A stretch of DNA of 64,000 bases from Candidatus Poriferihabitans sp. (GTDB lineage Bacteria; Pseudomonadota; Gammaproteobacteria; Arenicellales; Poriferihabitantaceae): assembly GCA_965220975.1 (NCBI GenBank), contig OZ244855.1, positions 2,384,967 to 2,448,966 on the forward strand. Reading direction: 5' to 3'. The translations under genes and the position numbers were made by a program. The notes beneath the pieces are model-generated. The model made no database searches. It saw only the letters and a program-made list of their open reading frames with translations, and was not told where the DNA came from. This document shows positions 11,161-11,784 of the stretch, in pieces (position 1 is the first letter of the stretch; every line of letters begins with the position of its first letter).

Positions 11161-11784
11161 TGAGTTCAAGTCCGAAGTGCAACACTGCGGGCCGGATCAG
11201 AGGGGTTGAAGCATGTCGATCACGGGATCGAGACTGGAGCATCCGCAGTTCCGGCTTGCCGGATATCGGAAGATGGACCGGTTGCGCCGCCTGCTTCGCA
11301 GGCGGTGCTAGCAGCAGTGAGTTTCATGCCGCAGGGATGCCGGCGATCAACACGCCCAGTACCGCAGTAGCTACTGCGATCCCGCCGAGAATCGCGAGAA
11401 GCAGCCGGTTTTCCCGCTTGGCCATGTCGGTTTTCCAGTCGGCCATGTCGGCCCGGAAACGCTCGAGCGTTCCCTGAAGGTCGGACTGCAGTGTCTTCAT
11501 GCGTTCCTCCAGAACGGCGATCCGTTCCGATAGTTCGTGGTTGGTAGGTTCTGCCATGCCTTCCATTGTACACCATTTGCCGGACAGATTTGCAAGTCCA
11601 GTCCCTTGAATTGCGTGTTCAGTGCCCGCAAAATCGATTGGCAAAGGTTGACGGCAACCCCGTACAGCTTTCGTGCAAGAAGGGCAACATGCCATGGAAC
11701 CCGGACAATCTTGAACAGGTCAAAGCTTGTACTCGACCGGGTTCAAGTCCGAAGCGCACCACTGTCCCTGCCTGTCCGGGCATG
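11161..11784 (-). repeat. 624-bp repeat, copy A (inverted with respect to copy B at 21084-21727)
   Basis: I compared it directly with the reverse complement of 21084-21727 and it is near-identical except for a 21-bp indel. It is bounded by 25-nt direct repeats: GTTCAAGTCCGAAGTGCAACACTG at 11164 and GTTCAAGTCCGAAGCGCACCACTG at about 11740. Confidence 0.85.
11324..11566 (-). CDS. small coiled-coil protein with a C-terminal TM helix (XhlA-like architecture), copy A
   Basis: The sequence is MEGMAEPTNHELSERIAVLEERMKTLQSDLQGTLERFRADMADWKTDMAKRENRLLLAILGGIAVATAVLGVLIAGIPAA. The start was chosen at the MEGM codon, and a TTGCAA...TACAAT promoter-like pair lies directly upstream. The longer track ORF is probably an over-extension. 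Confidence 0.45.
   Translation of the reverse strand: MEGMAEPTNHELSERIAVLEERMKTLQSDLQGTLERFRADMADWKTDMAKRENRLLLAILGGIAVATAVLGVLIAGIPAA

Follow-up and report, generated by a model that had tools for sequence, protein, structure and literature searches.

IS30-type ends at the borders of an inverted repeat in a porin and lipoprotein island of Candidatus Poriferihabitans

Described systems and the locus

Mobile insertion cassettes (MICs) and miniature inverted-repeat transposable elements (MITEs), e.g. MIC231 of Bacillus cereus, are transposase-less elements bounded by the ends of an insertion sequence (IS). IS30 has 26-bp inverted repeats (IRs); it inserts beside its own IRs, and deletions and inversions arise from IR-IR junctions (PMC9333248). 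The present case concerns an inverted repeat, here called X, of 624 bp in one arm (A) and 645 bp in the other (B), that carries a small membrane-protein gene in a 64,000-nt stretch (the window) of the genome of a Candidatus Poriferihabitans sp., assembled as one 3.37-Mb contig (G000, with C1 the contig label in coordinates). An earlier note, made from the letters alone, had seen in each arm a discrete, possibly mobile or site-specifically inserted unit, delimited by two direct copies of a 25-mer. The explanation favored here, with a probability of about three in four, is that X is a host small-gene segment between two solo right terminal inverted repeats (IRRs; IRL being the left counterpart) of an IS30-family element, within a larger inverted porin duplication. 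The constituents are largely of known kinds, i.e. an IS30-family member unnamed so far together with its remnants, segmental duplication and gene conversion, and nothing here points to a new mechanism.

A dispersed 24-mer and its parent element

The sequence in question, trimmed to the 24-mer GTTCAAGTCCGAAGYGCAMCACTG, has five sites in the window (11164+, 11741+, 14326+, 21126- and 21724-) and none in shuffled window sequence, the chance expectation also being none. Two are present in each arm of X in direct orientation (11164+ and 11741+; 21126- and 21724-), as the earlier note had described, and a third on the same strand as those of arm A (14326+) is at the head of the leader of a porin gene, porin a. 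Genome-wide examination did not bear out the idea that it is private to the unit: at up to 2 mismatches there are 50 copies (reversed control, 0), and allowing up to 4 gives 68. A CRISPR-like repeat was ruled out, since the copies are dispersed over the genome rather than arrayed. To the left of each there is a short CCCCA-like tip, and then sequence unique to that copy. To the right of most there are a few shared sequences that end at varied lengths, from 44 to ~740 bp, and the longest reach into the C-terminus of an IS30-type transposase. The truncated IS fragments form nested sets, and both ends of the element serve as anchors for them.

All of the repeat copies terminate at the two ends of one complete IS30-family element of 1,608 bp (G000:1783334-1784941), whose 333-aa open frame matches the NCBIfam profile NF033563 (transpos_IS30) with 255 bits against a cut-off of 80 (G000:1783899-1784696; profile positions 2-267 of 267). 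Its ends, IRL CCCCCATTCAACTATGAAGTGCAACAC and IRR CCCCAGTTCAAGTCCGAAGTGCAACAC, are imperfect inverted repeats. On a contig of a Dokdonella metagenome-assembled genome (MAG) the same 24-mer closes the gene for an IS30 transposase of 322 aa (...K R V A L R T stop), with the TGA stop codon within the 24-mer, and the element ends in ...GGACTTGAACTCA, identical to the sharp boundary of X. An annotated IS30-family element of Pseudoalteromonas, with a transposase 51% identical in amino acids, has the homologous ends ATTCAAATTGTAAGTGCATAAC and GTTATGCACTTCAGGTTTGAATCC. By these sequence relationships the 24-mer is identified as the IRR of an IS30-family insertion sequence, and the sharp outer edge of X, which was correctly noticed earlier, is where an IS30-type end physically terminates. 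Occurrence in the genus is patchy (6 of the 41 genomes searched, the window's own included, often at contig ends), and the 24-mer is also present in MAGs of Thermoleophilia and Paracoccaceae besides that of Dokdonella, as expected of an IS that moves horizontally. The variant GTTCCACTCC, followed by a hairpin, marks a second IS30 subtype; its subterminal sequence accounts for the ~20 extra nt that the inner IRRs of X have in common with porin leaders.

Several other identities were considered for the repeat. Within it, GGTTCAAGTCC resembles a tRNA T-loop, as might befit a tRNA-derived attachment site, but ARAGORN found 0 tRNAs in the window and the motif is part of the IS end. For a known RNA family, the 3′ end of a group II intron or a TnpB omega-RNA, Rfam searches at E<=1 with the repeat families and with 10.5-22.5 kb of the window gave nothing relevant. 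A proposal that the IRR is better conserved than the IS interior was dropped, the comparison being biased by copy selection.

Some observations on IS-related sequence elsewhere are pertinent in their own right. In the intact element (G000:C1:1783334-1784941) there is ~0.5 kb of conserved, apparently non-coding sequence from the transposase stop to the IRR, the Dokdonella stop being inside the IRR. A solo IRL-type IS30 repeat, cccacaTTCAACTATGAAGTGCAACGC, is present at window 47277-47303 (+), just upstream of a porin gene (45858-46937, -). A 165-bp dispersed repeat of MITE-like look has ~30 copies of 93-100% identity (e.g. G000:C1 ~1785430-1785594, 1319257-1319421 and 2209147-2209311).

Arms and borders of the inverted repeat

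The near-identity of the inverted arms is real. They match over 11161-11451/21437-21727 (291 nt, 100% identity) and 11410-11784/21083-21457 (375 nt, 98%), and 9,298 nt separate them. Arm A is 11161-11784 and arm B 21083-21727, the latter being 21 bp longer because of one extra in-frame tandem unit, CCGACATGGCCGACTGGAAAA. Features at the borders, and the tandem repeat, are as follows.

11159-11187 (+): outer solo IRR of arm A; made up of the tip CTTGAG and the 24-mer, the tip pointing left, away from X; matched by the intact IS at its IRR and by the Dokdonella element at its end GGACTTGAACTCA
11735-11784 (+): inner IRR of arm A with ~20 nt of type-2 IS30 subterminal sequence; contains copy 1 of a 44-bp direct repeat (11741-11784)
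21083-21132 (-): inner IRR of arm B with 20 nt; continues directly into the leader of porin b (20944-21082)
21416-21478 (+): 21-bp in-frame tandem repeat; two perfect units and one 81% unit in arm B, one unit fewer in arm A
21701-21729 (-): arm B's outer solo IRR, with a tip, CCTGAG, that points right, away from X; same junction in the sister strain

At the outer boundary, ...CGGACTTGAACTCA, homology between A and B ends abruptly. The earlier claim of a sharp stop of homology is correct for this edge. The inner edge is no true homology end: similarity picks up again after an intervening segment, Y (11785-14325).

With respect to what X is in itself, the IRRs of each arm are on the same strand, so that inverted terminal repeats at X's own two ends are absent. 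A target duplication of 2-3 bp was found in the junction sequences neither around X nor around the 10.6-kb structure in which it lies nor around the inner IRR pair; the flanks of 11159-21729 (GCTCA on the left, AAGGT on the right) do not match. A search by tblastn with two IS30 transposases against 10300-22000 revealed no transposase remnant in X (best E = 0.67). With direct IRRs, no target duplication and no transposase remnant, X is neither an autonomous IS nor a MITE-like element. Just two copies of X are present in the genome, both inside a larger inverted segmental duplication, which is the situation in which the earlier note had itself said that the mobile-unit idea fails. What stands of that idea is the mobile-DNA origin of the boundary, and not X as a discrete new mobile element.

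The enclosing palindrome and segment Y

X forms the outer end of each arm of an imperfect palindrome of ~10.6 kb (11159-21729), and the arms converge near 18.2 kb. The order in each is IRR, outward-pointing small gene, IRR with 20 nt, porin leader, porin and surface lipoprotein(s).

11785-14325 (unstranded): segment Y, a 2,541-bp low-GC (40-44%) insert interrupting arm A, with no recognizable genes
14320-14369 (+): third IRR with 20 nt; tip CCTGAG; contains copy 2 of the 44-bp direct repeat
14370-14507 (+): porin a leader, 92.8% identical to that of porin b
14508-15437 (+): porin a (Porin_4), followed by lipoprotein genes 15466-16920 and 16949-18196
19903-20943 (-): porin b (Porin_4), followed by a lipoprotein gene, 18259-19872 (-)
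21858-23257 (+): IS256-family IS beside arm B, at an empty site of the sister strain

Past Y, homology between the arms continues from the third IRR (14326-14548 versus 21126-20903, 91-95%) through the leader into the porin gene. Identity is 99.6% in the interior of X (2 of 547 positions differing), 96.7% in the inner IRR, 90.0% in the next 20 nt, 92.8% in the leader and 82% at the 5′ end of the porin genes; porins a and b are 40% identical in amino acids, and the lipoproteins of the two arms have only a C-terminal domain in common. On either side of Y is a copy of an exact 44-bp direct repeat consisting of IRR and 20 nt (11741-11784 = 14326-14369). Y has no Pfam domains, no plasmid match and no terminal inverted repeats, and a plasmid or phage origin is not backed, the Pfam and plasmid searches being empty.

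A sister strain, represented by metagenome contig ERZ25070844 ctg9697 (L065 in coordinates), is particularly informative. It has three X copies, each attached to an inner IRR and porin leader, and none of the three contains Y, which only the strain of the window has. The copy orthologous to arm B has the same right flank minus the IS256 copy; the other two have different outer flanks. In every one, homology starts precisely at the IRR tip. The constant attachment of X to the leader, and the change of outer flank at the IRR tip, point to the IRRs as rearrangement breakpoints. X thus lies within a larger inverted duplication whose arms are homogenized, and the rearrangements that distinguish the strains break at IRRs. 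Insertion of X as a unit at a specific site is not sustained, X never being found apart from the porin leader in the sister strain and target duplication being absent. One sister copy has a hybrid outer IRR, CCCCAGTTCCACTCCAAAG..., combining a type-2 left half with the usual ...CACTG/CGGGCC junction, which points to exchange inside the IRR. The IS256-family copy is a recent insertion, since the orthologous sister site is empty (window 21857 and 23256 are contiguous there, at L065 position 10527). Another assembly, L109, matches at 100% identity and in collinear order, and so affords no independent view of arm orientation; a search for evidence of A/B inversion found no other record of the porin b protein.

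A whole-segment explanation is that 11159-21729 in its entirety, 10.6 kb, is or once was a transposon with IS30 ends, non-autonomous and mobilized in trans by the resident transposase, in effect a mobile insertion cassette or composite-like element with two porin-lipoprotein cassettes and both small genes as its content. A nested version, 14320-21132, can be read likewise. The outer IRRs are inverted with tips outward, which is transposon-end geometry, and one apparently intact IS30 transposase gene is present in the genome. Moreover, synteny within the genus stops near 10435, marking the region as an island. This explanation is nevertheless considered improbable. Neither candidate boundary has a 2-3 bp target duplication, and both ends are of IRR type with no IRL. 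In addition, the sister strain has the same junction and right flank at arm B, but differs on the other side and is without cassettes a and b at the locus, an arrangement that piecemeal rearrangement fits better than a single insertion does. No second copy of the 10.6-kb structure was found.

The setting of the palindrome is also of interest. Over window 9000-10435 the DNA of the apr (APS reductase) operon is syntenic with all 7 other species of the genus; synteny stops at ~10435, and DNA to the right of that point is, by this comparison, part of an island specific to the strain or species. The genus offered no empty site: in one genome (G006) unrelated DNA is beside the apr operon, and the adjoining 40 kb is without similarity to the window. 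The non-coding 174 bp of X is in none of the 7 other species.

A smaller-scale alternative is that X, and likewise Y, are discrete cassettes that insert site-specifically at the 24-mer and form arrays, in a manner akin to integrons or IS26 translocatable units (TUs). Three successive modules are behind IRRs of the same orientation (11164, 11741 and 14326); Y is between exact 44-bp direct repeats and missing from the sister X copies; the inner IRR is exactly where the identity of the arms drops; and the hybrid IRR of the sister strain suggests crossover within the 24-mer. IS30 integration beside its own IRs with sequence conversion (PMC9333248) is also cited in its favor. Against it are the invariable presence of the porin leader with X, the restriction of the non-ORF parts of X to this species (ORF, open reading frame), and the paralogues of the small gene that are without flanking 24-mers. 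No recombinase is among the larger ORFs screened from 7153 to 23218 (Pfam and some NCBIfam; smaller ORFs of 10.4-14.1 kb by Pfam only). IR-targeting by IS30 gives IRL-IRR junctions and not IRR-cargo-IRR arrays, and the step in identity is also accounted for by Y cutting the homology block. On balance this has to be rated unlikely.

The location of IRRs between small genes and porins raises the issue of whether they have been kept there as regulatory sites, for instance as operators for a transposase-derived helix-turn-helix (HTH) protein. Small gene B and porin b are divergent, with an IRR mid-way in the 366 bp between them, and an IRR is at the head of all four leaders of this type (14326, 21126, G000:2204946 and G000:2209853). 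However, the IRR is no more conserved than would follow from the leader having been duplicated as a whole (88-94%; 92.8% between the arms), and the other 4 porin genes of the window (near 27.9, 34.4, 37.5 and 46.9 kb) are without it. Retention for regulation is accordingly thought very improbable.

Exchange among cassettes is apparent beyond X. In the sister strain (L065 15174-20236, compared with window 15452-17094) a lipoprotein gene 95.6% identical to the one linked to porin a is behind a different porin, which is porin-c-like and interrupted by a Tn5-like transposase. Occurrence of the same lipoprotein gene behind different porins implies that cassettes are shuffled between loci and strains.

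The small gene and its start

The sole ORF under selection in X is the small membrane-protein gene.

11324-11557 (-): small ORF of arm A, 77 aa plus stop (80 aa from 11566); coiled coil and C-terminal transmembrane (TM) segment
21310-21564 (+): small ORF of arm B, 84 aa plus stop; one additional ADWKTDM heptad
11565-11595 (-): promoter-like TTGCAA-19-TACAAT, 7 nt to ATG; candidate leaderless start

The lengths of 77 and 84 aa are from the start conserved in paralogues; counted from an ATG 9 nt upstream they are 80 and 87 aa. The earlier description of a coiled coil with a C-terminal TM helix holds up well. Hydrophobic residues are at 3-4 heptad spacing in residues 9-45, mean Kyte-Doolittle hydropathy is 2.65 for the 19-residue window from residue 53, and an AlphaFold model has a single helix, residues 7-73 (pLDDT 83.5). 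Pairwise dN/dS values of 0.12-0.59 argue that the ORF is a real coding gene. The likeness to XhlA and holins was right as to architecture, but not as to family. Pfam, NCBIfam and PDB profile searches with the small protein gave only generic coiled-coil noise; PF10779 (XhlA) was not among the matches of queries P0001 and P0002 at E<=5, nor among the 25 most frequent of the 90 families matched by 30 family members at E<=0.1. The best guess, from the predicted structure, is an oligomerizing, tail-anchored inner-membrane protein.

About 13 more paralogous loci, several of them degraded, were detected in the genome by tblastn. A protein search gave 115 homologues, with several genomes having many copies, and the few with named sources are labeled as uncultured Gammaproteobacteria or Rhodobacter MAGs; judged by this distribution, the family is confined to a few lineages of sponge-associated type. 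The paralogues are mosaic: N-terminal, middle and TM modules recombine and the number of ADWKTDM-like heptads varies, one such heptad being the difference between the A and B proteins. Travel of the family with the 24-mer, or with porins, was considered and neither holds. None of the other paralogues has a flanking 24-mer or IS30 end, and none is linked to a porin, from which it follows that the small gene is a passenger here and not part of the IS. A truncated paralogue at window 10670-10786 (-), between aprM and arm A, keeps the coiled coil and has no TM segment; in the sister strain its homologue is between two inverted porin leaders (L065 9161-9391).

In leaderless bacterial mRNAs the -10 element is ~7 nt upstream of an AUG that doubles as the transcription start. 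The TTGCAA...TACAAT pair that was earlier seen to nearly abut the ATG is present as listed, and is rejected by a consensus promoter scan because of its 19-nt spacer. Even so, TTGNNN-16..19-TANNNT-6..7-ATG occurs in eight of the nine paralogues with an assignable start, and six of the eight combine TTGAAA or TTGTAA with a 16-18 nt spacer and a distance to the ATG of exactly 6 nt. A GGAG-like purine-rich stretch 1-2 nt ahead of the ATG is too near for a normal Shine-Dalgarno sequence. Conservation of the promoter geometry among paralogues lends support to the leaderless suggestion of the earlier note, and the small gene is probably transcribed as a leaderless mRNA with its -10 element 6-7 nt before the ATG.

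Origin of the arrangement

In the favored explanation, X would be host DNA with a self-promoted small gene, situated between two solo IS30-family IRRs. Insertion of Y would have split the homology of arm A and isolated the 624-bp block, which intragenomic gene conversion may since have kept homogenized. Rearrangements would have joined the X-plus-porin module to flanks that differ between this genome and the sister strain, the breaks always being at IRRs. Two mechanisms are conceivable for these, one being IS30 transposase chemistry (IR-targeting, with deletion or inversion from IR-IR junctions) and the other recombination between dispersed IRRs, and which of them acted can only be surmised. 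The resident IS30 family may have produced the junctions, the remainder being the work of homologous recombination or gene conversion among IRRs and leaders at scattered sites.

A number of considerations weigh against this. To our knowledge, no documented IS30 reaction joins the interior side of an IRR to foreign DNA, and the joining of an IRR to non-IS DNA on that side is deduced only from the end-anchored truncations seen genome-wide. No 2-3 bp target duplication was seen, the intact IS included: its flanks, TATTT on the left and TAGTA on the right, do not match, and a single intact copy is available. The step in identity at the inner IRR could also reflect exchange of X as an IRR-to-IRR unit. 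Finally, the three consecutive IRR-headed modules in one orientation (X, Y and porin leader) are array-like, which simple decay does not predict.

The same features are relevant to a more dynamic possibility, in which the solo IRRs, far from being dead remnants, are live, portable recombination sites at which the single resident IS30 transposase shuffles, inserts or inverts modules (X with its small gene, Y and the porin-lipoprotein cassettes) in a surface-antigen island. Though held to be unlikely, it is compatible with the three same-orientation IRR modules, the 44-bp repeat of Y, the hybrid IRR and the cassette loci that differ between strains. If true, it would amount to a transposase-driven cassette system for outer-membrane variation in a host-associated bacterium.

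From a practical perspective, the ~70 dispersed 24-mer copies in the genome can now be annotated as IS30-family right ends, and what appeared to be the boundary of a new mobile unit is explained as an IS30 end. IS ends, gene conversion and segmental duplication jointly shape a porin and surface-lipoprotein island of a probably sponge-associated gammaproteobacterium, in which solo IS ends persist as rearrangement breakpoints. What remains is the uncharacterized small-protein family, which has about 14 loci in this genome and is without a Pfam family, mosaic, heptad-variable and probably leaderless, and which is of interest given the host-associated setting.

Comparison with known systems

For IS30 the comparison was with E. 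coli IS30 and its relatives and with the element of Pseudoalteromonas sp. HL-AS1 (NZ_CP133570.1 458438-459406). The parent of the 24-mer likewise has a gene for a DDE transposase, which scores over the IS30 cut-off of NCBIfam, and its imperfect terminal inverted repeats, ~27 bp long, are of the TTCAA-N4-GAAGTGCAAC type; the Dokdonella element, with its transposase stop codon within the IRR, is a close relative as to IRs. Own-IR targeting, and the deletions and inversions that IS30 makes, fit the rearranged neighborhood (PMC9333248). The resident IS differs from its relatives in being long (1,608 bp), with ~0.5 kb between stop and IRR, and X differs from all in having just two direct solo IRRs, with neither transposase nor target duplication.

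As in MICs and MITEs, IS ends surround passenger genes, and the IRRs of the 10.6-kb palindrome are inverted with tips outward. Unlike them, X has direct ends, and no target duplication, empty site or second copy of the large structure was found. The small protein is like XhlA (PF10779) and the DUF1640/CCDC90-like proteins (PF07798) in its ~80 aa and in a heptad helix running into one C-terminal TM segment; it is unlike them in having no significant Pfam or NCBIfam match and no phage lysis context, and in being multicopy and mosaic with a variable number of heptads. With genes for leaderless mRNAs the parallel is that TANNNT is 6-7 nt before the ATG, with TTGNNN at a distance of 16-19 nt, in 8/9 of the paralogues with an assignable start.

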